Shown here: positions 843-44,790 of the stretch, in pieces
Position numbering within the stretch: position 1 is the first letter of the stretch
Layout of the letters: the number at the start of each line of letters is the position of its first letter
Assembly (NCBI GenBank): GCA_001275005.1
Contig: JWZX01002246.1
Span: 1-44,790 of the forward strand
Direction of reading: 5' to 3'
Length of the DNA: 44,790 bases
From: Chrysochromulina tobinii
Taxonomy: Eukaryota
Notes under the pieces: generated by a model
What the model was told of the DNA's origin: nothing
Seen by the model: only the letters and a program-made list of their open reading frames with translations
Database searches by the model: none
Program-made: the position numbers and the translations under genes

Positions 843-1719
843 ATGAAAACAGCTGCGAGCGCGACGGTCCTCGTCATCGGCTCGGGTGCACGTGAGCACG
901 CCATCGCATCTGCACTCGCCCGCAGCCCGCGCAAGCCGTCGTTGCTCTGCTTTGGGTCGGCCAACAATCCTGGCATCCACGCCCTCTGCATGGACGACGG
1001 CTACATGGTGGGCAAGTTGACAGACGTGTCAGCAATTACGTTGTTTGCCCATCAGCGTGGTGCAACGCTCGCGATTTGCGGACCGGAGGCACCGCTCGCC
1101 GCGGGTGTGTCCGATGCCCTCCGCGCCGTTAAGGTTCCCGTCGTGGGCCCATCAGCGCACTTGGCACAGATCGAGAGCAGCAAGGGGTGGGCACTTGAGC
1201 TTCTGCAGCGTCATTGCGTCGCAGGCATCCCCAAGTTCCGCGAGTTCCTCTCCATGGATGGTGCACGCGAGTACCTCGAGGAGCTCGGCGAGGGAAATTA
1301 CGTCGTCAAGGCCGATGGGTTCTGCGGTGGTAAGGGTGTCAAGGTGGCTGGAGACCACCTGAGCTCAATTGACGAGGCGCTTGCGTACTGTGAGGAGTGC
1401 CTTCCACACTTCGTGCTGTGCGAGCGACTGCGTGGCGAGGAGTTTTCGGTTCTCTCTTTCACCGACGGCGAGACGCTCTCGCACATGCCCGCCGTGCAGG
1501 ACCACAAGCGCGCGTACGAGGGCGACCAAGGGCCCAACACGGGGGGCATGGGCACGTACACGTGCGAGGATCACCTGCTGCCTTTCCTCTCGCAGAAGGC
1601 GCTCGATGAAGCGCGCGCAATAAATGGAGCGTGCGTGCGCGCGCTGCGTTGCGAACTCGGCGAGCTCTACCGTGGCATCCTCTACGGTGGCTACATGCTC
1701 ACGCCCAAGGGTGTCATGC

Positions 1720-1750
<31 letters not shown>

Positions 1751-2828
1751 CGAGTGCATCAATTTGCTCGCGCTCCTCGACCATGAGCGCACCGATTTCC
1801 TTACGGTGTGCGAAGCGACTGCCAGCGGCGGGCTCGCACGCGTGCCCGTCCACTTCCAGCCACTCGCCTCGTGCTGCAAGTACGCATGCCCCGAGGGCTA
1901 TCCCGACACGCCGCTTAAGGGCTTCGAGGTGGACCTCAGCGGCCTCGAGTCGCCCGAATTCGCCTTCCTCGGTGCCATCGACCGCGACGCTGCGGGCACG
2001 CTGCGCGGCACCGGCTCGCGCGCCGTCGGAGTCGTCGCGCTCGCCGCCGACCTCAACTCGGCTGAAGCGCGGGCCGAGCGCGAGGTGAGCGCCGTCAAGG
2101 GGTCGCTCTTCCACCGGAGTGACATAGGCAAGGAGCCGCTCGTCGCCTCGCGCGTCAAGCGGATGCTCGAACTGCAGGCGGCGGCCGCCGCGGACGGAGC
2201 CCCTGGGGGGCGTGTCGTGCGCCTTGGTGTGCTAGGCTCCACGCGCGGATCGTCGCTGCAGCCAGTGCTGCGCGCGCTCGCCGCGGGTGTGCTTCGCCAC
2301 GTGACGATTAACCTCGTGCTCAGCAATAAGAAGGACGCTGGCATCCTGCGGCGCGCAGCGCTGCACGGCCTACCGCACGCCCATGTGCCCGTGAACGGCC
2401 GCAGCCGCGATGCGTACGACGCCGAGATCACGCAGCGGCTGGAGGAGGCTGGCTGTGATGCCGTCCTGTGCGTTGGATGGATGCGCATCCTCTCGGCGCC
2501 CTTTTGCATGCGCTGGCGTCAGCGCGCTCTCAACGTGCACCCGTCGCTGCTGCCCGCCTTCGCGGGCGGCATGGACCTCGAGGTGCACTCGGCCGTGCTC
2601 GCGGCCGGCGTGCCGGAGAGCGGCTGCACAGTGCACTTCATCGAGGAGGCGGTAGATGGCGGCCAGATCGTCGTTCAGAAGCGCTGCCCTGTGCTGCCCT
2701 TGGACACGCCCGAGAGCCTCAAGGCGCGCGTGCAGCCCCTCGAGGGCGTCGCCTTCCTCGAGGCGATTGGCATAGTGGCCGCCCAAGTGCGCGCAGCCGC
2801 CTGTTCTGACCCGCCTGCTCTGAGCTGA
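843..2828 (+). CDS. purD-purN: Bifunctional phosphoribosylamine-glycine ligase (GARS/PurD) + phosphoribosylglycinamide formyltransferase (GART/PurN)
   Basis: PurD motifs: VLVIGSGAREHA, GPEAPL, QDHKR..GDQGPNTGGMG, EFNARFGDPE, FHRSDIG (ends ~2130). PurN from ~2213: LGVLGSTRG, GWMRILS, NVHPSLLP, GCTVHF, VDGG. Confidence 0.95.
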
Positions 2829-5984: not shown

Positions 5985-6492
5985 ATCGCGCGACGGACGT
6001 CGCCGCGGTGAGGAGAGATGTCTTTTCCAGGTTTTCGCCTCGGCTGTGAACACAATTTCATTCCACATGATACATCGATGACACCGCGGCCGGTGCCGAC
6101 AGGCGCATGCCGGGCAGCGACCAGCGTGGACACAACCGCGCGCGATGGGGATGGCCCAAGGCCGTAGTAGGCCGAAGCGCGCAAGGCGCATACGTGATAC
6201 AACCGCAAGGCGCAACAACGAACAAGTTGAAACTTCAAGCGAGACCGTCACCGTGGAGCGCGGAGCGGCGTGACCCGCAATCACACCTATATGTGTGTAC
6301 TCAAAAAGAGTCAAGATCGCTGATCGGTACTGAAATATGAATCTTACTAAAAACTCAAATCTTACTCAAAAATCTGGCATGACCGAGCGTCGGGCGGGGG
6401 TACTGTGCACGCATTGTGCACGCATTGTGCAGCGGTATAGTATCTAAGCGAGAAGCGGGTCGGAGAGGCGCTGAGAGCGCACAGACGGCAGC

Positions 6493-8166
6493 TCAGCCTC
6501 CGAGGGGTTGCGTCAGGGGTTGCGGGACGAAGCTCTCGAGAGTGCTACCGCTGGTGAAGAGCAGCACCTCGGGCACGCCCCTGCTCGGCTGCGCCGGCAC
6601 CGCACACACGCCGCCGCCCTTTTCGACGACCTTTTTCATCCCGTCCATCTCCAGGTTGCACTCTGAGAGACGGCGCCCATCATCGAGCGAAAAGACGCTC
6701 AGCATCTGCGAGTGGCAGCCAAGTGCGCTCACCGCGCGACCACCGTGCGAGAAGCTCGGGGTGAAGATCTTGTCCGTGAATTGGCCATCTTTAGGCTTCG
6801 CGTGGCCGCGAAGGCGAAGTTGCGGCGCCGGCGGACGGCGCAGGTCGTGCACCAGTATCTCGGCGGGGTCGACGCTGAGCACGACGTGTTCCGAGAGCGG
6901 AGACCAGCGCACGCAATAGGCGATGCGGCCGTGCACGTCTGCCAAGGGAGACAAGACGGCCGCGCGGGCGTCTGCGCAGCGCGTATCAACGAGAACGACC
7001 TCGCCAGTATTCCCCGTGCAGGCAAGCATGTGGGCATCGCGCCATCGCGCGCACTTGACGACGCCGACATTGGGAAGGTAGGCGTGCGAGCATGTGAGCG
7101 ACGCCTCGCGCAGCAACGAGATGGCGACCGTTTTGTCCTTGGAGCTCGACAGCACTCGCCCGCCGCACTCGTGCATCGAAAAGATGCCACTGCTGTGTGG
7201 GCTGCATGTGGCGAGCTTGAGCGGCTCCTCATCGCGTCCCTTGATCTTGCGCAGGTCCCACAGCACGACTGTCGCATCATCCGATGCTGTCAGCATGAGA
7301 TTAGGATCATCGTCCCCGGCGGCCGCCGAGCAAAATTGCAGGTCAGCCACCCATTTGTTGTGCGCCTTGAAGCTCCAGAGGGGCTCGAGCGGCGGCGCCG
7401 ACGGGTCGTGGAGATGCGATGCACGGTAAAGGCTCACGTAGCCCTGGGAGCCAGCACAGCCCAGGAGCGGCCGAGCGCCCGCACTGACAGTCATCGAGTA
7501 GACGACTTTGCACTTGCCGGTAGTTATGGGCACTGCGCAGCGCCAGCCATGCAACATACCCGATTCGAATGACTCGCTCATCGGCGAACACTCCGGAACG
7601 GCGCTTGCGCCGGCAGCCTTATCGCACAAGTAGCGGAGCACAGAGGAGTCTGAGTAGGTGCCGTCGGCATCGTCGGCGTCGCTGCCGTCGCTGGCATCGT
7701 CGTCGTTGGCGTCCTGAGCGTCATCGTTAGCGCCACTCGCTTCGGAGCGCTTGACCATTGTGCCGCCCGGCGCTCGAGCTCGGAGTGTCCGAGAACTGGG
7801 CGGAGGCGGCGAAGCGGTCCGCCGCCGCTTGCTGACGCCGGTGGAATCGCGCCGCGGAGGCGGCGGCGCGAGCATCGGCTCGATCAGGCCGAGCGAGCGG
7901 AGCACTTCGTTGTTGCGCTCTATGTTGGCCTGGCGCTCAATCTCGTACGCGCTGAGGCCGCCATTGTGCTCCGCAGATGGCGGCGGAGCAGGAGGCGGCG
8001 CGTTTCGCGGCGGTGCAGGAGGCGGCGCGGGTTCAGGCGGCGCGGGTTGCGGCGGCGCAGGAAGCGGCGTGGGCTGGGGCGGCACACGTGACGGCGCGGG
8101 TTGCACACTGGAGAAGGTCAGTGTGCATTGCTTCAGCTTCGGCATAATTATTCCCGCCTTCTCCAT
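6493..8166 (-). CDS. WD40-repeat protein, WDR76/Cmr1-like
   Basis: N-terminal LSAYEIERQANIERNNEVLRSLGL motif typical of WDR76/Cmr1. WD repeats include AHNKWVADLQF..LTASDDATVVLWDL, HSSGIFSM, VRWSP. Pro-rich N-terminus. Confidence 0.75.
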   Translation of the reverse strand: MEKAGIIMPKLKQCTLTFSSVQPAPSRVPPQPTPLPAPPQPAPPEPAPPPAPPRNAPPPAPPPSAEHNGGLSAYEIERQANIERNNEVLRSLGLIEPMLAPPPPRRDSTGVSKRRRTASPPPPSSRTLRARAPGGTMVKRSEASGANDDAQDANDDDASDGSDADDADGTYSDSSVLRYLCDKAAGASAVPECSPMSESFESGMLHGWRCAVPITTGKCKVVYSMTVSAGARPLLGCAGSQGYVSLYRASHLHDPSAPPLEPLWSFKAHNKWVADLQFCSAAAGDDDPNLMLTASDDATVVLWDLRKIKGRDEEPLKLATCSPHSSGIFSMHECGGRVLSSSKDKTVAISLLREASLTCSHAYLPNVGVVKCARWRDAHMLACTGNTGEVVLVDTRCADARAAVLSPLADVHGRIAYCVRWSPLSEHVVLSVDPAEILVHDLRRPPAPQLRLRGHAKPKDGQFTDKIFTPSFSHGGRAVSALGCHSQMLSVFSLDDGRRLSECNLEMDGMKKVVEKGGGVCAVPAQPSRGVPEVLLFTSGSTLESFVPQPLTQPLGG

Positions 8167-8220
8167 TCATTCATGTTAATACACACAACACGTAATCACA
8201 ACACTCCAACACGCAAAGAC

Positions 8221-8802
8221 CAGTAAACCTGGTCGCGCGTTGAAACTGTGAATTGCAGATCATCAAAGCTACACAAGCAGCCTGGTGAGCGCGAAACCCC
8301 GGTCCCTGCTAAAGCTAGACCAGGCTTACATCGCGGTGGGTGGGCGGGAACACTTAACTCTCGAAAGAGAGACCGACATCATGCGCGTCATTGCGCTGCG
8401 AATCTCCCCCAGAGATGCAGAGGTGCCTAGTAGCACTCTATCTGCCGACGAGATGCAGGGTGCCGAGTTCAGCACACGAATCACGATCTGCCTCGTCTAA
8501 ATCTCCCGTTGGGACTAAACCGGATGCGCATCGGATAGGTTCGAGAGCCCCCTTAGGCCTCGCTCTCCGAGCAGCAGATCTCCAGGTATGTATCCCCATG
8601 GTATGCCCAATACCCCAAACGGCAGGGAGACCTCTCCCCGCATACCCCTTCCCCCTGGCCGGGCGACTGTCTGTCTCTCTTCACACGTTGGTTCACGGCC
8701 GCTTAACCGTTGGGGTCAAGCGGCAGTAAACCTGGTCGCGCGTTGAAACTGTGAATTGCAGATCATCAAAGCTACACAAGCAGCCTGGTGAGCGCGAAAC
8801 CC
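8221..8802 (+). repeat. 79-bp direct repeat: 8221-8299 and 8724-8802
   Basis: Both copies read cagtaaacctggtcgcgcgttgaaactgtgaattgcagatcatcaaagctacacaagcagcctggtgagcgcgaaaccc. Confidence 0.95.
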
Positions 8803-9332
8803 AAGGATCGTCGATCCAGCCCAGCCCCGAAAAACCACGGTAGATGGGCGCCTACAGCTGTTGGAGCAGAGACGCTCGAAGCCGAGTAAGAGCCCGCGAC
8901 GGCGGCGAATTAGCCACGAAGCGGAGCGCCGCCCCCACGTACGCGTGGGGTTCGGTAACCTGCGGCACAACAGCCAGCGCCTCAGGCTGCACCTAACCAA
9001 CGTGTGAAGAGAGACAGACAGTCGCCCGGCCAGGGGGAAGGGGTATGCGGGGAGAGGTCTCCCTGCCGTTTGGGGTATTGGGCATACCATGGGGATACAT
9101 ACCTGGAGTTCTGCTGCTCGGAGAGCGAGGCCTAAGGGGGCTCTCGAACCTATCCGATGCGCATCCGGTTTAGTCCCAACGGGAGATTTAGACGAGGCAG
9201 ATCGTGTGCTGAACTCGGCACCCTGCATCTCGTCGGCAGATAGAGTGCTACTAGGCACCTCTGCATCTCTGGGGGAGATTCGCAGCGCAATGACGCGCAT
9301 GATGTCGGTCTCTCTTTCGAGAGTTAAGTGTT
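8349..9332. repeat. ~340-bp near-perfect inverted repeat: arms 8349-8693 and 8995-9332, 301-bp spacer; probable mobile-element remnant
   Basis: The arms are reverse complements. Differences seen: a 7-bp micro-duplication (cacacgaatcacgatct vs cacacgatct) and one substitution (gcagatctcc vs gcagaactcc). Confidence 0.93.
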
Positions 9333-10050
9333 GCAGGGGCCCAATGGTTCGCACCCTCATCCTTCTCTTCGTCATGGGCCAGCCAAGGGTCCGTCGAATA
9401 CAAAATCGCAGCGGACTAACTTTGGACTAATAACTAATACGTAATAGTCGAAACGAAGCAGTGGAACACAGGGTCGCACGACGCCAATTCAACAACTTAA
9501 ATAAAAAAATATAACACGCGGCCGTTGTCCGTATACGTTGACCGCCCGACTCAAGCTCAACGTCGACGACGTCTCACAGTGAGTCTCTCACACACACGCG
9601 GCAGCGTGCGGCAACACGTCGATGCAACACGTCCCACTCATATCCCCAATCTCTCTATCAACGGCTAATTAATGGATTCCAACGGTCTCTCTGCATCATC
9701 TGCATCTCCGGCAGCGCCCTCGCCTCTATCATCATCACATCAATCCGCCGTGCCGCTCAGGAGACCCCTTTCGCTGCTGCCATGTAACCTACGTAGCGCC
9801 CAGAACGGCGCGAGGCATGGGACGTTCTCACCATAGATTGATCCATATATCTTCATATCCACGCCCCAGTATGTGCGCGGACGCGGCATCGATGCGCTGG
9901 CCTCGAGAAGCCTCGAGAGCACGAGAGGAGGAGCCGCGTTCGATATCCCTCGCGGCAGGCCGACGACTAGCCACCGTCCCAAGGCTGAAATCTCAGAAGC
10001 AGACACGGATGAAATGCGGCGTCGCCTCTACAGCTGCTGCACGTGCGCAA

Positions 10051-11117
10051 TCACTTGCGGCGGTCGAGCGTCGCGATGACGTGCTTGCCGAAGCAGTGCG
10101 TCGCGAGATCGATGCCGCAGCCGTGCAGCAGCGAGACGGCCGCATTGAGCTGCTCGGCGGTCGCGCAGCCAATGACCGCTTCGGCCACGTTGGAACCCGC
10201 CTTGCTTGTGGCGAGCTGCGGCAGCACGGGCAGCAGCAGGTTGGCGAGGTCCTCGCGTTGGCCGGGCAGCGCGATCCGCAGCGCGATCTGCACCACGTAG
10301 TTGCCATATTGGTCGAGGGAGAGGCGTGTGAGCTCGTCGGCGCCGCACGCGATGAGCGCGGCCGCCACGCAGCGCGTGTCGACGTCATGGCTCTCCGCCT
10401 CGGGAAGGATCTTCTGGACGGCGCGCGAGCCGCTCTGCTGCGTCGACAGCACGCTGATCGCCCCGGCGATCTCACGCACGATGAAGGGCGCACGCGTCAC
10501 CTTGAAGGCGGTGCACACGCTCCACGAACCGTTAATGGTCGTGGCGGTGGTCGCCACGTGGCCTTGGAGCTCGTCGACGAGCGCCGCCGCCATCTTGCTC
10601 GGGAGTGAGTGAAGCGCGGCCTGCACGACGCGCGAGCCCTGTGCGTGCTTCATGAACTCGACCACGCGGCCACGCAGCGCGTTTTCCACCCACGGCTGTG
10701 CCTCGGGAAGCGAGGCCATGTTCGAGACGAGGTAGTTGCCAAACAGGTTGGTCGAGAGCTCACCGAGGTGGGGCCCGAGCTCGTCGCACGCCGCCTGAAG
10801 CCTCACGGGCGACATGCCCGTGAGCGCGCGCTGCAGCGTGCGCGAGCCCTCCTGCTCCTTGGCCATCGCAACGAGCCGGCCCGGCTGCAGCACGTGCTGC
10901 GGCACGCGCGCGGGCGAGTAGACCCCCGCGGAGGGCGCAGGTGCGAGCTGCGGCTGCATCGGGCCCATGACGAAGCCGAAGCCCTGGTGGGCGAAAAAGG
11001 GGTTGGGCTGCCCCGGGAGCAGCGGCGGCGGGAGAAGCATCTGCTGCTGGAAGTGCATCTGCTGCTGCTGCATCTGCTGCATTTGCTGCTGCTGCATTTG
11101 CTGCTGCTGCTGCTGCA

Positions 11118-11152
<35 letters not shown>

Positions 11153-12261
11153 ATCTGCTGCATCTGCTGCTGCTGCTGCTGCTGCTGCTGCAGGAGCTGA
11201 TGCTGAATGACGGCGGCGGCCATCTGTTGTTGGAACCCTTGCTGCGCGTGCTGCTGCTGCATGAGCCAAGGCGCTGGCAGCAGGCCTGGCTGCGGCGCGA
11301 GCATGGGCAATGCAAAGGGTGCCACGCCCATCGTCGGCGGTGAGACGGGCTGCGCGCCGGGGAGCACCTCGCCATAGAAGCCTGCGGTCAAGGGCAGGGG
11401 CTCGAGGACGGGCTGCTCGAGCGACGAGAGCGCGTGGCGTTCGTACGTGGCCCAGCGCTGCATCGAGCGCGGCGAGGCGGCGGCGGCCGGCGCTGCCCCC
11501 ATCAGCGGAAGAGGGCTGCCAGTGGTGACGTCGGAGACAGGCGAGCCGCCGGAGTCGGACTCGCTCGCGGTGGCGAGTGGCGGCGAGCCGGCGGCGGCAG
11601 GCGAAATCATGCGCGGCGGCGTCGTGGGTGGCGAGCCGGCCGAGGCGTTGGCCGACGCCTTACACGTCTTGGTCTTGTGCACCTTGTCGACATCAGAAAG
11701 CCAGTCCTGAGGACCGACGCGCTTGGGCGCGTAGAGCACCTCGTGCAGGTCGGGTTGACGGCTCGCATGCGAGTCGTACTTCAGGTTGGACGCGCCGATC
11801 GAGTAGCTGCGGGTGAGGCGCGGACCCGAGCTCTCGGGGCGCGGTGCCGTGGGTTCTCCAGTCTCCTCGGTTGCGTGCTCGTCCTCCTCGTCGAAGAGGC
11901 GCGATATCGAGCGGTGCAGCTCGAAGTCAAGCGAGGCGTTCAGGTCGATCTCGATGCAGTTGTTGGACAACGAGAGCTCGTGCTGCATGTGCTTGTAGCT
12001 GTTGGTGCCGATCGAGTGGCGACGCCCGATCGTGAACGCCCCGACGTCGGCAATTGGGCCGGTCTCGGTCGCCTTCTCATTCTGCAGGTTGGCTGCGCGC
12101 ATCTCCGCCGAGTATAGGTTTGGTGGCGCGGTTGCCGCATTCAGTCCGAGCGGCGAGCGCACGCTTTTGCGGCGGCCCGTCGTCGGTGGCGACTCCGGGA
12201 AGGACTTCTGGCTGACCAGCTGGCCAATGCAGCCTCCAGTGTCGCTCGCCAACGCCACCAT
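10051..12261 (-). CDS. Pumilio/PUF-family RNA-binding protein with polyQ/M low-complexity region
   Basis: Eight C-terminal Puf repeats: EQEGSRTLQ, NLFGNYLVS, HAQGSRVVQ, INGSWSVC, QQSGSRAVQ, DQYGNYVVQ, SKAGSNVAE, HCFGKHVIA. First ATG at 12261; the frame is open to 12291. Confidence 0.9.
11041..11204 (-). repeat. Interrupted (CAG)n trinucleotide repeat encoding polyQ with interspersed Met
   Basis: ctg runs on the + strand; translates as QQQQQQQQQMQQMQQQ... in the Pumilio frame. Confidence 0.95.
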
Positions 12262-12488
12262 GGTCTCCGTCGTCGATCTTTCGGTCGGCAACCTGGAAGC
12301 AGGCGTTGGCCGACGAAAGGCCGACGAACGCGAGCACGCGAGTTGGGAGCGCTGGGTTAGACACTACTCATTGATACACCCTTTGTGTGGAACATGTTCG
12401 AACGGAGGGAAAGTGGGCGGAGGTAAGCGATTTGACTTGACTTGACTTGACTTGCTTCCTCGCTCAATCTTCCGTTTCGCACATTTCA

Positions 12489-14993
12489 ATGCGGCGCTCG
12501 ACGTCCCGATCCGTCATCGGGGGGAGCAACCGCCGCGTGTACACCACAGCGTCCGATGGGTCGTTGGCGGGCTCGCCTGCGCTTCGCCCTCGCACGCCGG
12601 TGGTGTACCAGACTGAAGCGGAGCGCCGCAAGGAGATTGTTCTTGCGCCGGTGATCCCGCCGACAGTGACTTCCATCACGACGCTGCAGCAGTTTTCAGG
12701 CTCATCATTCAACAATAGCTCTGCCGATCTGGAGACCTGCGATATGACTACGGGGCCACAGCTGCGTGCGGTGCGTCGACCACGTCCCAAGTCGGGCGAG
12801 TTGCCGCCCTCACTCACACAGTCTATGTACCCGATAGTTCAGAGGCCAGCGACCGTCGGCGGGTCGCAGTCGTCCTTGAATGGTTCAAGGCCAGCGACTG
12901 TCGGGTCGCAGCCGTCCTCGGATCATTTCAGGAAAGTTAATACTACGACCATCACTGGCGCGCAGGAGTACGCAGTGCAAGTGATGACGGATTTCTTTGG
13001 TCGGAGGCCGATTGAGCACATGCGCAATGCCTTTCGCAACGCCGACGTGGACGATTCGGGCGAGCTCGACCAGCTTGAGTTTCGGCAGGCCATCAAGGCC
13101 ATGAAATGCGGGCTTGGCGACAAGGACGCTGACGCGCTCTTCAAGCTCGCCGACCAGGATGGCTCGGGCTCGATCGGGATCCATGAGTTCTTCGTCAATT
13201 TCCGCCATGATCACTGGCCTCGTGAGCGCTTCTTCTGGACGAAACCCGAACCGAACGTGAACCTGGCAGGCAACCTCACCAAGAAAGAGCGTGTAGATCT
13301 TTCGGACGCTCTAGCGGTGCAGTTTGATCAGCCGGCCCAGCTGAGCACGCCTGATATCATGAAGGTACTCGCCGAGAAGGTGGCGGTGCACGGCTCAGCC
13401 GAGAAGGTCTTCCGGGTGATCGACACCAACGTCAACGGAAAGGTCGATCTCGATGAGATCCCGGAGGCGCTGCGCCCCTTTGAGCTTCACGTGAGCCAGC
13501 AGCAGGCGAAAGAGGTGCTCAAGGAGATAAACCGTATCGTCGGCAAGCCCGCCGATGCACCGATTACTTACAATTCGTTCGCGGTCGCTTTCAACCCCAC
13601 GGCGGGACCGCCGCGCATGGGCTCTGTCGCGTTCCAAGAGCCGCAAACCAACGTCCACGTGCGCCAGCGCGAGCCGATCGACGAGCGCGAGTACGCGTCG
13701 CTCGGGCCGACGCGTTCGCTCGAGTCGTTACATGCATCGAGGAGCTCCAGCGCAGGCTTCGCCGCATTTGGGGAGCGCAGCATGGACGAACACATGCGCT
13801 CGCTTCATTGCATCGCGCCCACGCCACCGCTCTCGCACGCGGCAACCACCCAGACATTAAGAGGGATCGAGAGGGATCGTGAGGCGCGCGGCAGACTTGA
13901 CCAGATGGCAGGCTGGCGAAACGCCCAAGGCGATGAAGCCATCGACGGTGGCGGCGACATGCTCGGCAAGGAGATCCTCAAGACAGGCCGCGACATCGAC
14001 TGGCGCTCAAGTATCCAGGGGCCGGCCAAGCAGTCGATGTTCGCATCGGCCTCAGCGCCCAACCTTCTGTCGACGACGCTGGAGATGGGTGTCGCGGCGC
14101 CCTCGCGCACGCCCCCGGCGGTCGCCTCCCCCACAAAGGCGCCACCGCAAACCGGAGCAGAAGCCGCTCCCGTCGCTGCTGCGGACACCAAGTCGGCCGA
14201 GGCGCCGCCGCCCACCGGATCAAGGTCTCCGCTGCTGCCCTCGTACGCCGCGCCGACGATCGCAAGTCGAAAGCAGCAAGAGCCCTCGCTGCCGCCGGCG
14301 TTCTCTTCGCAATCGACTCTGGGCAGCCTGAGCAGCTCGATGGCCAACTCGACGCTCATGCGCACGCGCTCGCGGATCGAGCTCGCGCGCGACTTAGCTG
14401 GCTCGCGCTCCTCGCGTGAGTGCCTCTACCCTGACGAAACATCGCACCACCACGTGCATGAGCTCGATCGGCTCGCGCACACCTCCTCGATCGCCGCGCT
14501 CAACTCGATGTCGTCGGCCGCCGGGGGCGCCGGCTCGAGCAAGGAGATTGGGTTCCAGCGCTTCGACAAGGAGTGCCGTGCGGATCGGCTGCGCTCGATC
14601 GGTGCGCGCCAGCAGGAGCGTCAGGAGCTCCTCAGCCAGATGGTGCTCCACGTCGAGAAGTCGATGGCCAGCCTCGATGCTCTGCATAGAAACAAGGCCC
14701 AGGCGTACAACCGCCGTGTGGGCCATCACCAGCTCATCGAGCTCACCCGCGGAATGGAGCACGGCCATGCGCCTGTGTTGCTCGAGCCATCGCCGCTACC
14801 CAACTGGGCGCCCGTGCCGCCGCACATGTCGTCGCACTGGAAGACGATCTCGGGCCATCACGTAGACCCGCCACGTGACCCGCAAGCTCACAAGCTACAC
14901 GCCGCCGGCGGTCGCAAGAGTATGAAGTGGCTCTCCGAATCGCCTCCCGTGGTCGACAGCCGACGTGTCGTCTGGGGAGGGTCGCACGCGTGA
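12489..14993 (+). CDS. EF-hand calcium-binding protein with long low-complexity flanks
   Basis: EF loops DVDDSGELDQLE, DQDGSGSIGIHE, DTNVNGKVDLDE; C-terminal coiled coil. First ATG at 12489. Confidence 0.85.
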   Translation: MRRSTSRSVIGGSNRRVYTTASDGSLAGSPALRPRTPVVYQTEAERRKEIVLAPVIPPTVTSITTLQQFSGSSFNNSSADLETCDMTTGPQLRAVRRPRPKSGELPPSLTQSMYPIVQRPATVGGSQSSLNGSRPATVGSQPSSDHFRKVNTTTITGAQEYAVQVMTDFFGRRPIEHMRNAFRNADVDDSGELDQLEFRQAIKAMKCGLGDKDADALFKLADQDGSGSIGIHEFFVNFRHDHWPRERFFWTKPEPNVNLAGNLTKKERVDLSDALAVQFDQPAQLSTPDIMKVLAEKVAVHGSAEKVFRVIDTNVNGKVDLDEIPEALRPFELHVSQQQAKEVLKEINRIVGKPADAPITYNSFAVAFNPTAGPPRMGSVAFQEPQTNVHVRQREPIDEREYASLGPTRSLESLHASRSSSAGFAAFGERSMDEHMRSLHCIAPTPPLSHAATTQTLRGIERDREARGRLDQMAGWRNAQGDEAIDGGGDMLGKEILKTGRDIDWRSSIQGPAKQSMFASASAPNLLSTTLEMGVAAPSRTPPAVASPTKAPPQTGAEAAPVAAADTKSAEAPPPTGSRSPLLPSYAAPTIASRKQQEPSLPPAFSSQSTLGSLSSSMANSTLMRTRSRIELARDLAGSRSSRECLYPDETSHHHVHELDRLAHTSSIAALNSMSSAAGGAGSSKEIGFQRFDKECRADRLRSIGARQQERQELLSQMVLHVEKSMASLDALHRNKAQAYNRRVGHHQLIELTRGMEHGHAPVLLEPSPLPNWAPVPPHMSSHWKTISGHHVDPPRDPQAHKLHAAGGRKSMKWLSESPPVVDSRRVVWGGSHA

Positions 14994-38157: not shown

Positions 38158-39549
38158 TCACTCGGGCATGCCCTCCCCGGTGGTGGTCTTGGCTGCCCGG
38201 CCGCCCTTGAGCAAGCTGCGCAGATCTCCTCCCGGGGCACCCTCGGGGAAGCTGGGCAGCACGCTGGGCGGCGCAGCGCGCGCCAGATCAGCCAGCGTAG
38301 GGCCGGCATGGGCCACCTCGACGTGGCGCCCTGCGGCCATGTCGGCGAGCGTGGGGCCCACAGGCATGGCGCCAGCGCTCGCCATCTCGGCAAGCGTCGG
38401 TCCCGCCGGCGCCGAGCGGATCGCGATGATCTCGGCCAGCGAGGGGGCATCTTCACGAGCAAGCTTCGGCAGATGGTGGGAGATCATTTTCTTGGCCGCG
38501 TTGGCGTTGGACGGGCCACGAGGAGCGTAGGGCGCGGAGCTGGCCTGCCGGCCGTGGCGCTTGTCGGCGATGGCGCCCTTTTTGCCGCCCGAGTCGCCGC
38601 CGTCGAGCTCGCCGTACCAGCGCGAGATGGCGCGCTTAGGCGGTTTGATGTCACTTGTACTCGCGAGCCGGAAGAGAAGCTGGAGTCCCTTTCCCGCCGC
38701 GGCCAGCTCGGTGGGCAGCGTGCGCCACGAGGTCGTGTCGACGCCCTGCGCGTTCGGGAGCAGCGGCACCGTGCGCTGCTGGAGCGCCGCAGCCGCGGCG
38801 CTGGCATCCGAGAAGACGACGTTGGCCGAAGAGTCGTTGACCCACTCCACGAATAAGGGCGGCGCGAGCCCTTCGGCCATGAAGTAGCCAAAGAGGTCCT
38901 CGGTACTCATCCGGTCGGTGCCGAAGATGTGCACCGCCTCGGGCCGTGGGACCTCGAAGGCCGACACGTCGCGCCGATTCTCCCAGAAGGCGTCGGGGCC
39001 GGCGAGCGTAGAGATCAACGCGAGCGGGTCTTTGGTTGCCTCGACACCAAACTTGGACGCGCGCGCCTGCATCTTGGCGATCTCCTCCATGGTGAGCAAC
39101 TGCGCTGGCACGACGGGCGCGACGGGCGCGACGGGCCGCGCAGCGGGCGCTTCGATGCCAAACTTGGCCGCGCGCTGCTGCCTGCGCGCCAGCTCCTCCT
39201 CCGTCAGTGGCACGGACGCGTGTGCTGGCGCCTGCAGCGTGTGCTGAATGACTGGGCGCTTGCCCGACTTTAGCTTGGGCGGCCTAGGTGGTTTGGTGGG
39301 ATCTCCCTCGCCCAACATCGCCGCCTCGTCCTCCTCCAGCATCGCTTCCTCCGCTGCCTCCGCTGCGCGCTGCCGCTCCCGGGCAGCGGCTCGCTGAGCT
39401 TCCTCTTCCGCAGCCTCGAGCGCCCTCTCCTCCGCCTCCTCCATCTGTGCCTCCTCGTCTATGCCCCCGAGGACGTCGGCGTCGGCGGACACATCGAATG
39501 TGTCGGGCACGTCGGCGAGCAAATCGGCGTCGCTCATCGTGGTCTCCAT
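38158..39549 (-). CDS. NCBP3: Nuclear cap-binding protein subunit 3-like (NCBP3/DUF2414 RRM-like domain)
   Basis: RPEAVHIFGTDRMSTEDLFGYF..VEWVNDSSANVVF; two RxxKFG motifs upstream. First ATG at 39549. Confidence 0.8.
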   Translation of the reverse strand: METTMSDADLLADVPDTFDVSADADVLGGIDEEAQMEEAEERALEAAEEEAQRAAARERQRAAEAAEEAMLEEDEAAMLGEGDPTKPPRPPKLKSGKRPVIQHTLQAPAHASVPLTEEELARRQQRAAKFGIEAPAARPVAPVAPVVPAQLLTMEEIAKMQARASKFGVEATKDPLALISTLAGPDAFWENRRDVSAFEVPRPEAVHIFGTDRMSTEDLFGYFMAEGLAPPLFVEWVNDSSANVVFSDASAAAAALQQRTVPLLPNAQGVDTTSWRTLPTELAAAGKGLQLLFRLASTSDIKPPKRAISRWYGELDGGDSGGKKGAIADKRHGRQASSAPYAPRGPSNANAAKKMISHHLPKLAREDAPSLAEIIAIRSAPAGPTLAEMASAGAMPVGPTLADMAAGRHVEVAHAGPTLADLARAAPPSVLPSFPEGAPGGDLRSLLKGGRAAKTTTGEGMPE

Positions 39550-39793
39550 TGCCAATTGGCACCGGTCAGCTCTGAGGCCTAGCTCGTGCGAAGAGGAGGC
39601 GCGCACGTGCACGTGACGCCTCTTGGGCTGAAAGAGTCCCTAGTTTCCATATCGTGAAGGGAGGTGTGAACTGGATCTTGTCCACCTAAGTGCGTCTCGC
39701 TGGTGGAAAATAGGTAGCCTAAGGCTATTAATCCTTCAAGTTCCTGCTGAAGTTTTGCCTTCGGGAGTCGAGCGTGCGAGCGCTGTACGAGCC

Positions 39794-42700
39794 ATGCGCC
39801 GGCCGCTGCTGGCGGTGTCGCTCTTCGCGATCACGACCTCCTCCTCGGCCTCCGCCACGCGCCTTTCGATGGGCCTGACCGCGCTCGCCGCCGCGCCGCC
39901 CGTCGTCATGCGACGGCGAGGCGCGGCGGCCGTGCCGCCGCTCGAGCCAGCAGCGGCGGCGGCGGCGGTGGCGACGGCGCGCACGCGGCCCATCTGCGCG
40001 ACGGCGGCCACTATGCCGCCGCCCGCCGCCGACGCGCCACCCTTTTACATCACCACGCCCATCTACTACGTCAACGGCCAGCCGCACATTGGGCACGCCT
40101 ACACGACGCTGGCGTGCGATGTGCTCGCACGCTTCAAGCGGCTCGATGGGTACGATGTCAAGTTCCTGACGGGCACGGACGAGCACGGCCAGAAGGTGGA
40201 GCAGACGGCCGTCGCCGCCGGCGAGACGCCCATCGCCTTTGCCAACCGCGTCTCGGCCACGTACCGCGCGCTGCTCGATACGTACGACTTTTCGTGCGAC
40301 GAGTTCATCCGGACGACAGAGCCGCGGCACTACGAGGCGGTGCAGGCGCTCTGGTGCAAGCTGCGCGACGCGGGCGACATCTACCTCGGCGCGTACGAGG
40401 GCTGGTACTCGGTGCGCGACGAGTGCTTCTACGGCGAGGACGAGCTCGTCGACGGCAAAGCGCCCACCGGTGCGCCGGTCGAGTGGGTCGCCGAGTCCTC
40501 CTACTTTTTCCGGCTGTCCAAGTACGCGGAGCCGATCGCGCGGCACATTGAGTCGCATCCCGAGTTCATCCGGCCCGCCGGCCGACGCAACGAGGTGCTC
40601 TCCTTCATGCGCGACGGCCTGCGCGACCTCTCGATCTCACGGACCACCTTCGGGTGGGGCGTGCCCGTGCCCGAAGACCCGATGAGCCCGGGCGCGCACG
40701 AGGGGCACGTCATGTACGTGTGGCTGGACGCGCTGACCAACTACCTGACGGCGGTCGGCTACCCGCACACGAGCGCCTCGCAGTACGAGCGATATTGGCC
40801 TGCGAGCGTCCACATGGTCGGCAAGGACATTCTGCGCTTCCACGCCATCTATTGGCCCGCCTTTCTGCTCGCCGCCGGGCTGCCCCTGCCCCAGCGGCTC
40901 TTTGCCCACGGCTGGTGGACCGTCAATGGCGAGAAGATGTCCAAATCGGTGGGCAATGTCATCGAGCCCGTCGGCCTCGTCCAGCGGTACGGCTGCGACC
41001 AGGTACGCTACTTTATGGTGGGCGCTAATGAACCTCTGATGAGCCTCTGATTGCGTCCCTCATCAGGTACGCTACTTTATGGTGAGCGAGGTGCCCTTTG
41101 GCTCGGATGGCGACTTTTCGCACGAGAAGATGCAGGACATCATCAACGCGAAGCTCTCGAATGACCTGGGCAACCTCGCGTACCGCACCCTCTCGTTCGC
41201 GTACAAGCACTGCGCCGCGACCGTGCCCACCCCCGGGCCGCTCAATGCCGACGACGAGGCGATGCTCGAGGCCGCGCGCGCCCTGCTGCCCGCGCTGCGT
41301 GAGCTCGCGGACGAGATGCAGCTGCATCGGATCACGCAGCAGACGAATGCGCTCGTGCAGCAGGCGAATCGGTACATCGACACGCAGGCGCCCTGGTCGC
41401 TGCGCAAGACGGACCCGGCGCGCATGCAGACGGTCCTGTGGGTGCTCATGGAGACCATGCGATACGTGGGCATCGTCTCGCAGCCGGTGACGCCCACGAT
41501 CGCCAGCGCGCTGCTCGACCAGCTGACCGTGCCCAAGACGGCGCGCGCCTTTAGCGCGCTCGTGGAGCCCGCGTGCGTGCTCGCGGGCGGCGGGCCGCTG
41601 CCCATGCCGCAGATCATCGTGCCGCGGTACGAGGCGACGGAGGAGGAGGCCGCTGCCGATGCGGCCGACGCGATGGCCAAGGCGGCCAAGGCGGAGGCGG
41701 CGAGTGCGGCGAGTGCGGCGGCGGCAAAGGCGGGCACGGCGGCGGCAAAGGCGGCGGCCACAGCCCCCCACCTTCTCACGGGCGCGGCGCTCGCGGCGCT
41801 CGAGGCGCAGGTGCGCGCGCAAGGCGACAAGGTGCGCACCGTCAAGGCCGCGATCAAGGCGGGGGAGGTGGAGGAGGGTGCGCTGCAGCCGGAGCTCGCG
41901 GAGCTCATCGCCCTCAAGAGCCAGCTGCCGCCAGATATGTTCGGGAAGTTCCGAGATCAACAAGAAAACCTGATCGACACAGCGAGACCTGCACTCCCAA
42001 CGAAGCGGGGCAACCCCGTCGGCTCGCCTATGCGACGGGCGCAGGACGCGGTGCGCCAAGGCAATGTGTCCTATGCTTTGTCCACGGCGATGGCAGCGAT
42101 CGCGCTCGCGGGCCCAGCATGCTCGGTGTTCGAGTGCAATCAGCTTTTGCGCGTTCTTGGCGACAGCGGGCATGTCGACGCGATGATGGCCATCTTCGAC
42201 GCCATGGTAGCCGCGGGCGCAATGCCGACGCAGGTGACCTACGGCACGCTCATCTCGCGCGCGGGCGCCTGCCGGCAGCCACAGCTGGCAAGCCGCTTCT
42301 ACCGCGACATGCTGCGCCGCGGGCTGGAACCGGACGCGCAGACGCTCAACTCGCTCATCAACGCCTACGCCAAGGCGGGCCACGTGAGCAAGGCGTACGC
42401 AGCCGCTGATGTGATGCGAAAGCGTGGTGTGAGCCCCACGTTGATCACGTACAACACGTTGCTCGACGCATGCGCGCGCGGTGGCAACGTGAGCCTGAGC
42501 CTCGCGTACCAAACGCTCCAGCAGGTGCTGGCCGCCAAGCTGCAGCCGAACGCGCGCACCTTTTCGATCCTCATCCACCTGTGCGCTCGCGTGGGCCGTG
42601 TCGACGACGCCTTCGGCTGGTTCCGGCGCATGGTGGCCGCTGGGGAGACGCCCACAGCCGTTACGTACTCGACGCTGGTGAACGCGTGCGGCCGCGCGGG

Positions 42701-44435
42701 CCAGCTCGAGCGTGCCTTCGCCGTGCTCGACCAGATGAGCCTCGTGGGGCTACAGCCGAATGTGGTCACGTACACCTCGCTCCTCGACGCGTGCGCCAAG
42801 GCGCGCCAACTGCCGCGCGCGCTCGGGGTCTTCCGTGCCATGATCGCCGCCGGAGTGCAGCCTAATCGTATCACGTGCACCGCGCTCTTCCACGGCTGCC
42901 TCACCGCGGGCGAGGTCCTGCTCGCGCGCGAGGTCATCAAGCACATGAGCAAGCTTGGGCTCACCCCCTCGGCGCACTCGTTCACCGCGCTGCTCACCGC
43001 CACGACGAACCTCGACTCGAGTGAACAGAACTCGGCAGCCGTCGCGTGCCTGCTGCGCCAGATGGCCGCTGCGGGCGTCGCGTCGGGTGGAGCCGCCTCC
43101 GCGGGCACATCTACCCTGGCCAGTGCCGCCGCGCCAAAGGATGCCGCCGACGCCGCCGACGCTGCCCTTCAAAGCGTCGTCACGGGCGGCGACCAAAAAG
43201 ATGGCGGCAAGACGAGTCTCGAGGACTCGATCCTGGGCATCCTCGAGCAGCTCACCAAGCGCCCGCGCGCAAGCCGGATCCAGCAGAGCCTCGCCCTCCT
43301 CGACACGGTGCTCTCCGCGCGGCTGCGCCCACCAACGGCGCTCTGGCTCACACTCTTCGCCGCCGCCGACACGAGTATCGAGCTGCAGGCGGCCGTGAAG
43401 CGCTTCCATCGTGCGCGCGACGCTGGGCTCGCCTCGCGAGATAGCCCCGAGAGCGCCGCCCTCGTCGCTGCCACCGCACGCATCGCGTCGAGCCCCGGAG
43501 GAGGCGGCGGCTCCGAGGGAAGCGAGAGCCTCCAAGCAGAGGGCGGCGCAGAGAAAGTGCGCCCTCAACGCGTCCAGCCGTTCCTCTCGTCGGAGGCCGC
43601 TGCTTCGAGCAAGCCCGTGGCCGCCGCCTCCGACACACTGCAGGCCGTCTTCACGGTGTTCACAGAGATGCGCGCCGCTGGAGTGGCACCCGACCTCGCG
43701 GCCTTCAATGCCCTCATCAACGCGTGCGCGAGCGTCGGTGACGTGTCACGCGCCGAAGGCGCTTTTGGCGAGCTCTGTGCGGCCGGCCTCTCCCCAGATA
43801 CCATCTCGTACACGAGCCTCATCAAGGCGTGTGCCGTCGCAGGCGACGCCGCGCGTGCGGATCGCGTCTATCACGAGATGCAGCAGCGCACCAACCATTT
43901 CTCGACCTTCACGCCGCCGAGCGCACACACTTACCGCCATCTGATGGCAGTCCACCTCGAGGCAGCCCACGCACACACCGTCCTCGACCTTTTCGACGAG
44001 ATGAAGGCCCGTGGCATCGCGCCCGGGCACGCGCACTACGCAGCCGTGCTCGGCGCCATCACTCTGCACAGTGAGCTGCCCAGCTCGGTACGGCGCGCCG
44101 AGGAGGTGTACGAGGCGATGCGTCACGACGGTTTCCGTCTTGACACGCGCACGCTACTCCAGTTGGACTCCCTCTGCCGCCGGCATGACCGAGTCGATCT
44201 CGCAAGTCGGCTGCGCCGTGAGCGCTCGATCCCGCCTCGACTCGACACAGCCGCAGAGGCGGTGGTGGCGAGGCGGGCGGCCGAGATGGCGAGGCAGGCG
44301 GACGAGGCGGCCAGGGCCGAAGCCGAGGCGGTGCGGCTTCAGGAAGCAGAGAAGCTGGCGGAGGAGCGGCGACGCGCGGTACTCTCGAGATTGCGCTCGG
44401 GCGGGACTAGTGTGAAGTGGGGGGAGATTTCTTAG
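39794..44435 (+). CDS. metG: Organellar methionyl-tRNA synthetase continuing in frame into a WHEP-like domain and two PPR arrays; exons 39794-41002 and 41067-44435
   Basis: FYITTPIYYVNGQPHIGH, GTDEHGQK, YVWLDALTNY, GKDILRFH, KMSKS. The anticodon-binding domain runs to ~41630. Then QVRAQGDKVRTVK..ELIALKSQL (WHEP-like) and 35-aa PPR units (VTYGTLI, ITYNTLLDACAR, VTYSTLVNACGR, VTYTSLLDACAK, AFNALINACA, SYTSLIKAC). Confidence 0.85.
41003..41066 (+). other. Spliceosomal intron (64 nt, GT-AG) in MetRS, flanked by a 21-bp direct repeat
   Basis: gtacgc...catcag; removal joins ..GCDQ|VRYFMVSEVPFG in frame and skips the stop at 41048-41050. Confidence 0.88.
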
Positions 44436-44790
44436 CGGAGCCTAGTGCGGGGCGGCACAGGGCACCAGGCTGGCCCTGCTCGGATCCGCGCCCAAGCAGC
44501 CAGCACGCAGCAGGCACAGGGCGCCGGGCCCCGCTTTTATCTTCATGCTTAGCCGTCGAGGGCAAGGCTCAAGCTCTTGGCGTCGCCGGTCGTGCGTCTC
44601 AGTGGGGCGGGTGCCGGAGTCGAGCTGCGAGGAGCTCCGCTTGTACGCGGCTTTCACGCGCGCCGGCGTTCCCCGCGGCCCGCGCGCGTACGCCCCGCTT
44701 TCGCTAGCTCGGTCAGACGGCCTGGGGAGCGAAAATTGACCATCGCCAAAATGATCAATTCTGATGATGTCTCTATGGAATAAGGGTGCC

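Follow-up and report, generated by a model that had tools for sequence, protein, structure and literature searches.

An in-frame MetRS–PPR chimera in Chrysochromulina tobinii and the possible borrowing of an import leader

Why should a gene for a methionyl-tRNA synthetase (MetRS) run on into a pentatricopeptide repeat (PPR) protein? The question is raised by contig JWZX01002246.1 of the freshwater haptophyte Chrysochromulina tobinii (GenBank assembly GCA_001275005.1), where a single gene encodes both, and of which we analyzed positions 1 to 44,790 of the forward strand (this whole 44,790-nucleotide stretch is the window in what follows). Proteins encoded in the window fall into clusters with named proteins of C. 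tobinii and C. parva. The original prediction, made from the letters alone, held that the fusion could tether tRNA charging to particular organellar RNAs or let two proteins share one targeting peptide, and warned of a possible mis-join. Our reading, to which we assign a probability of roughly 0.65, is that this is a real in-frame chimera, in which the PPR protein borrows the start codon and import leader of a MetRS gene and the body of the MetRS is a passenger. A borrowed import signal is likely because relatives carry the same PPR protein with a signal of its own or behind another donor gene. The observations on which this reading builds are the fused DNA, a separate intact MetRS gene, spliced and junction-crossing sequence in RNA libraries, and alternative partners of the PPR part.

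The domain composition proposed earlier, a MetRS joined through a WHEP-like domain to 12–14 PPR repeats, was confirmed (Table 1), and the motifs number 14 (9 + 5), some of them degenerate. The first part combines a class I catalytic domain containing HIGH and KMSKS with an anticodon-binding domain, as in bacterial-type MetRS, and the short, Cys-poor knuckle that had been pointed out is readable in the sequence and common to stand-alone relatives. In exon 2, the WHEP-TRS family (PF00458) matches with E 9e-5 and 22.9 bits vs. a curated cut-off of 32.5, and the best solved relatives of this stretch are WHEP domains of HisRS, all weak (best E 0.004). The same exon matches PPR_2 (E 5e-88), and its tandem 35-residue helical repeats with conserved code residues are those of a P-class PPR protein. 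An AlphaFold2 model of 41634–43004 (mean predicted local distance difference test score, pLDDT, 88) contains a helix-turn-helix, a low-pLDDT linker (~41970–42017) and a solenoid that matches PPR structures.

Read unspliced, the ATG frame from 39794 meets a stop at 41050; once spliced, the two exons encode a predicted product of 1525 amino acids. The earlier statement that no stop follows the anticodon-binding domain was right in that the frame runs on into the PPR repeats, but the gene needs a 64-nt intron that had been missed. This joint is spliced in contigs of three of the four RNA runs and is the only GT..AG joint listed in those four, and the intron core was present in every close locus covering the site (7/7). 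Over 41000–41088, the exon boundary is duplicated (25 nt), and this duplication together with a short core makes up the intron. The core is high-copy in the genome (visible as a depth spike in DNA runs), and the intron looks like a recent gain. A duplication of this length is unusual, because the Introners of Chrysochromulina are described, in the portion of the source available, as having 4-bp duplications (bioRxiv 2022.06.06.494994).

When the C-terminal part of the MetRS served as the query in a metagenome scan, 13 loci were found. Nine are close to the window (98–100% DNA identity), with three (L004, L007 and L013) running into PPR sequence and six ending in a short lysine tail and a stop; among the four more distant loci, three end without PPR and one is incomplete. 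A single L007 contig matches the window over 39735–44704 at 98.9%. In the sequencing runs, one contig of DNA run X2 covers 41043–44683, the PPR contig of DNA run X4 is unbroken over 41902–44732 and starts in MetRS sequence, and three RNA libraries (X14, X15 and X17) have contigs that begin 35 letters before the end of the MetRS part, at 41902, and continue into the PPR. Another X14 contig (41774–41931) has the allele of the fused copy, 41879T, and an RNA contig of X16 departs from the window after 41936 and has the stand-alone allele at 41879. All RNA evidence takes the form of contigs, none covering the whole gene, and neither their depth (greater over MetRS than over PPR) nor empty bins were used as evidence.

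The fusion is real DNA. An assembly artefact from a collapsed MetRS repeat might be suspected, in that the MetRS copies are nearly identical and assemblies mix their single-nucleotide polymorphisms (SNPs); nonetheless, separate assemblies, as well as DNA and RNA runs of several studies, show the same junction, the X4 contig passes through it unbroken, and both MetRS copies extend to the ATG, such that this explanation is largely refuted and highly improbable. The possibility of a mis-join is thereby refuted, and contigs crossing the junction are available both from DNA (X2) and from the RNA libraries. The compositional difference noticed after the WHEP domain was also recovered, with a GC content at third codon positions of 0.52 at 41937–41999 vs. 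0.91–0.93 in the leader, catalytic, anticodon and WHEP segments, and this break marks a true gene junction and no assembly error.

The MetRS segment (39756–41936) is 98.2–99.3% identical to five full-length stand-alone copies, and its flanks differ on both sides. Fused and stand-alone types twice occur under one contig-name prefix (L004 with L012, L001 with L013), and contig depth is 74–77 over MetRS in X4 vs. 46 upstream and 44 over PPR, and 24–29 vs. 14 in X9; copy number rests on depth together with the separate assemblies, and depth alone provides no copy number, yet it agrees with the assemblies. Across eight aligned full-length copies, only positions 39831 and 41879 cleanly separate the two types (in the coding part before 41932), which suggests that either the duplication is recent or homogenization is ongoing. 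By these comparisons, the MetRS part arose by recent duplication, at the DNA level, of an intact stand-alone MetRS–WHEP gene that persists elsewhere, the level being indicated by the intron, which both copies keep. A retrocopy origin was considered and rejected on the same grounds. No element ends were recognized around the duplicated segment among the repeats listed. The WHEP domain was inherited from the parent and is not special to the fusion, given that 9 of 11 stand-alone MetRS matches carry PF00458.

Because assemblies mix the SNPs of both copies, the internal haplotype of the window may be a mosaic. At 40792–40879, eight linked differences (seven synonymous) occur in L004 and three RNA runs and form a two-path bubble in X4; this cluster may be a divergent tract between the MetRS copies that is not yet homogenized. 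Among stand-alone genes, P0009–P0019 are bacterial-type MetRS relatives with a C-terminal WHEP domain and lysine tail, an arrangement in which this separate lineage parallels human cytosolic MetRS. In L003, the stand-alone MetRS is followed by an open reading frame of 2327 amino acids (6486–13469), which we take to have Sel1-like repeats in two blocks and a C-terminal RING-like Cys pattern.

That the PPR part was the resident of this locus is suggested by its other partners. In a sister PPR cluster (94% identical), 13 of the 15 listed members have a short signal-like leader of their own, and two are too short to tell. The 38-member cluster to which the window belongs has 16 listed members: four are fused to MetRS (one being the open reading frame of the window), four are fused to a SAP-domain protein, and eight are without 5' information. 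The SAP-fused PPR alleles are 99% identical to the PPR of the window. Their donor also stands alone, as a SAP-domain protein of 261–269 amino acids with a hydrophobic N-terminus; two alleles (P0035 and P0041) contain a near-complete SAP gene that lacks the last 17 residues (90% identical over 139 amino acids), and two others (P0037 and P0043) an internally deleted form of it. The junctions of the SAP-fused and unfused alleles are known from protein sequence alone.

At the junction in the window, GKF corresponds to the last donor-derived residues of P0035, and the 16-residue stretch before the PPR homology is common to the window and all four SAP-fused alleles. Serial capture is likely because the window keeps this GKF of the SAP donor, and the simplest order, as far as sequence can tell, would probably be from native leader to capture of the SAP gene to capture of MetRS. 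Under this scheme, the PPR would be the resident gene that lost its own leader and first became fused to a near-complete SAP-domain gene, which a MetRS duplicate would then have replaced. A tblastn search upstream of the MetRS copy, in the window and in the loci, detected no remnant of the SAP gene (best E 1.7). PPR polymorphisms are common to MetRS-fused and SAP-fused alleles, which fits alleles recombining within one species.

Orthologues of the PPR part occur as far afield as Prymnesium parvum (49% identity) and the brown alga Nemacystus. The 150 best matches to the second array include 18 with the signature of this family, and not one of the 150 looks like MetRS or the SAP donor; the protein represented by the PPR part is old, conserved and normally unfused. 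Haptophyte algae carry a secondary red plastid, and a plastid location of the PPR protein is likely because many of its full-length orthologues begin with signal-like leaders, whereas in the fusion the native leader is gone. The code residues are the same in 10/10 aligned PPR proteins at motifs 1, 7 and 10 and in 9/10 at motifs 2 and 3, and they are identical at 14/14 motifs among the window, two SAP-fused forms and the aligned unfused form. A scan of viral contigs found no relative of this PPR, and an Atlas search with a homologue returned generic PPR clusters only.

On the leader-borrowing reading, a single 1525-residue preprotein would be made and imported into the plastid, its PPR arrays would bind the same RNA target as their unfused orthologues, and the stand-alone MetRS gene would supply most Met-tRNA charging. 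The idea that the fusion tethers tRNA charging finds no support: the same PPR is alone or SAP-fused in close relatives, its code residues are unchanged, and an intact MetRS gene is present in addition to the fusion. The suggestion of a shared targeting peptide came close, except that it is the PPR that appears to borrow its leader from a spare copy of MetRS. Even a striking fusion of domains can be incidental.

Several points weigh against this reading. The RNA contigs break in the Ala-rich linker, with no full-length transcript among them, and X15 has an unspliced contig across 41003–41066, indicating that DNA or pre-mRNA is present in that run. The fusion protein is a predicted product, represented by contigs of RNA libraries, and its leader-based targeting, though likely, is predicted from hydropathy. 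Moderate hydrophobicity (2.40) characterizes the stretch after an in-frame ATG at 42030. The MetRS of the window keeps HIGH, KMSKS and the anticodon domain, and decay of its core is not evident, given that variation pooled over both copies comprises 18 synonymous and 6 replacement sites (of 380 and 1177 sites, respectively). A KMSES form (K384E) is probably carried by one of the two MetRS copies in cultured material, but, being unphased, it is not assignable to either. Finally, that SAP-fused and unfused alleles occupy the same locus as the window is likely, but this is deduced from matching longest-contig sizes and not from their DNA: the longest contigs of unfused P0050 and P0049 (29187 and 27384) have the same values as those of homologues of the phosphofructokinase-2 gene of the window, and that of P0037 (40001) the same value as those of homologues of three window genes, the latter link being weaker because 40001 could be a cut-off value.

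The condition of the fused MetRS bears on whether it is still in use. HIGH and KMSKS are described as essential, and in human MetRS the WHEP domain and a lysine cluster are reported to aid tRNA binding (PMC8216282, from the part accessible); a lysine run follows WHEP in 12 of 14 stand-alone MetRS proteins and is absent from the fusion. K384E occurs in two of seven close loci, one of each type, and in three of four RNA runs; its carriers are the fused L004 and the stand-alone L002 and P0153, and KMSKS is also found in both types. Lysine occupies position 384 in 11/11 more distant homologues. By a rough calculation, the contig depth of X4 fits about one collapsed SNP in 40880–41009.

These data permit an alternative in which the fused MetRS is active and retained, with the PPR arrays holding it on organellar RNA as an RNA-binding appendage that replaces the lysine tail. 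The window, L007 and P0149 retain intact catalytic motifs, variation in the MetRS core is mostly synonymous, KMSES occurs in two stand-alone assemblies, and in the model the domains are separate, with a linker of low confidence between them. We nevertheless regard a bifunctional protein as unlikely. The fusion is not conserved, the sister lineage being unfused and other alleles using an unrelated SAP donor; among the fused loci, L004 has KMSES and the MetRS core of L007 two replacements of its own. The same fusion was recovered in the close loci L004, L007 and L013, and none came to light in other lineages: no PPR family appears in the best 120 of 4593 long MetRS matches, a weak negative for other lineages, and the 150 best PPR matches are equally devoid of MetRS likeness.

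Alternatively, one frame might yield two products, the PPR protein arising from an internal start (41937 or 42030), from an unseen splice form or by cleavage of the linker after import. Both ATGs are in frame, the linker has low pLDDT, and there is precedent in SODcp–RPL32, which employs alternative splicing (PMC8429499, in the text available). However, no hydrophobic leader follows the ATG at 41937, the reading frame passes the junction without a stop in the window as well as in L004, L007 and L013, and the 64-nt intron is the sole joint listed, as noted above, all of which make separate products improbable; moreover, cleavage after import would also fit the borrowing of a leader. Exact look-ups of PPR-only reading frames starting at 41937 or 42030 gave no match.

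A bolder version, which we consider doubtful, is that, within one species, a plastid PPR gene that is likely essential exchanges one whole-gene partner for another (at least two donors segregating), with the fused MetRS being the active organellar enzyme and KMSES residing on the stand-alone copy. If so, the fusion would mark the birth of a synthetase whose lysine tail has given way to a programmable RNA-binding array.

Table 1. Positions and supporting evidence for features of the fusion gene and its neighbor
Feature	Positions	Strand	Evidence and remarks
Divergent neighbor with NCBP3 domain	38158..39549	-	PF10309, E 4e-17; used as synteny marker
Duplicated MetRS segment	39756..41936	+	~40 nt upstream of the ATG plus whole gene with intron; ends 24 codons before the stop of the parent
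Exon 1	39794..41002	+	403 amino acids, N-terminal leader and MetRS catalytic domain; PF09334, E 1e-94; TIGR00398 metG, 362.9 bits, above cut-off
Predicted organelle-targeting leader	39794..40036	+	81 amino acids; solely by hydropathy and counts of charges: hydrophobic stretch at the N-terminus, first 40 residues free of acidic side chains, Met codons inside
HIGH motif, intact	40085..40096	+	Translation
KMSKS motif, intact in window	40934..40948	+	KMSES (40943 A>G) in other assemblies, fused and stand-alone alike
Intron	41003..41066	+	64-nt GT..AG, phase 0, flanked by 25-nt direct repeat; in both MetRS copies
Exon 2	41067..44435	+	1122 amino acids, open from MetRS into PPR; frame equally open in L004 and L007, and in L013 from WHEP on
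MetRS anticodon-binding domain	41223..41543	+	PF19303 (Anticodon_3), E 1e-10
Ala-rich linker, predicted helical	41634..41780	+	AlphaFold2 model
WHEP-like helix-turn-helix	41781..41918	+	Pfam and model; inherited from parent MetRS, subsequent lysine tail of the parent missing
Junction	41937..41999	+	Two new codons; GKF matching SAP-donor fusion allele; 16 residues common to SAP-fused alleles, not to sister lineage
PPR array 1	42126..43076	+	Nine motifs, ninth degenerate; Pfam, motif count, AlphaFold2 model, PPR structure matches
PPR array 2	43641..44201	+	Half motif plus five motifs; includes insertion marking this orthologue family

The short spacer between the NCBP3-like gene and the fusion (39550–39790) varies strongly among strains and is about 190 bases longer in L007. 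The end of the window (44698–44790) is high-copy sequence (X4 depth ~690) that is absent at this site in L007 and L013, and it is likely the end of a mobile element inserted ~260 nt after the stop. Elsewhere in the window (843–2828), PurD (GARS) is fused to a formyltransferase (PurN-like) domain and adjoins enolase.

To our knowledge, the gain of an import leader by gene fusion is an established process, usually recognized from old, fixed events. What appears to be mainly new in the present case is that captures of whole genes have occurred serially and are still segregating: close relatives present three states of what is likely one locus, i.e., a native leader, a SAP fusion (one form trimmed by internal deletion) and a MetRS fusion, and how targeting signals for a four-membrane plastid arise and are replaced becomes testable in a culturable alga. 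We found no report of this fusion gene in the open-access literature, although subscription journals and supplements, which lay outside its scope, could mention it, and a term search of the main text of a survey of plant synthetase appendages (PMC7564348) yielded no mention of PPR. Were the fused MetRS active, it would represent an aminoacyl-tRNA synthetase–PPR architecture found nowhere else in the searches made.

Known systems resemble parts of this gene; we compare them as they are described in the accessible parts of the papers cited. Like metRS2 of diatoms and cryptophytes, the MetRS is of bacterial type with an N-terminal extension, and organellar synthetases such as metRS2 are predicted to serve both plastid and mitochondrion, dual targeting being documented in diatoms, cryptophytes and ochrophytes (PMC4494062, PMC5462543). 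Unlike metRS2, the haptophyte relatives add a WHEP domain and a lysine tail, and the fused copy is a duplicate that lacks the tail and has gained 14 PPR motifs. Human cytosolic MetRS likewise has a C-terminal WHEP helix-turn-helix followed by a lysine-rich peptide (PMC8216282), but it belongs to a different MetRS lineage, and the fusion is truncated before the lysine cluster. With P-class proteins such as maize PPR10, the PPR part shares 35-residue helical repeats and canonical residues at the code positions; in contrast to PPR10, it has two arrays split by a long insert, and a whole enzyme has replaced its N-terminus.

Two chimeras come closer in their origin. BnChimera/BnRf-b of Brassica napus is also a young chimeric gene, present in some lines only, with a chloroplast-targeting peptide from one parent (PMC9162185); BnChimera, however, is harmful and a mosaic, whereas the fusion keeps a whole conserved PPR, apparently its only copy in the culture run examined. 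In SODcp–RPL32 of Malpighiales, a plastid-destined protein gained import by fusion to a gene with a transit peptide, and duplication allows the function of the donor to persist separately, as here; its passenger had newly moved from the plastid, and its two products are made by alternative splicing (PMC8429499). In Chrysochromulina, by contrast, an old nuclear PPR gene would have changed its leader and taken up nearly the whole of a donor gene, apparently twice.

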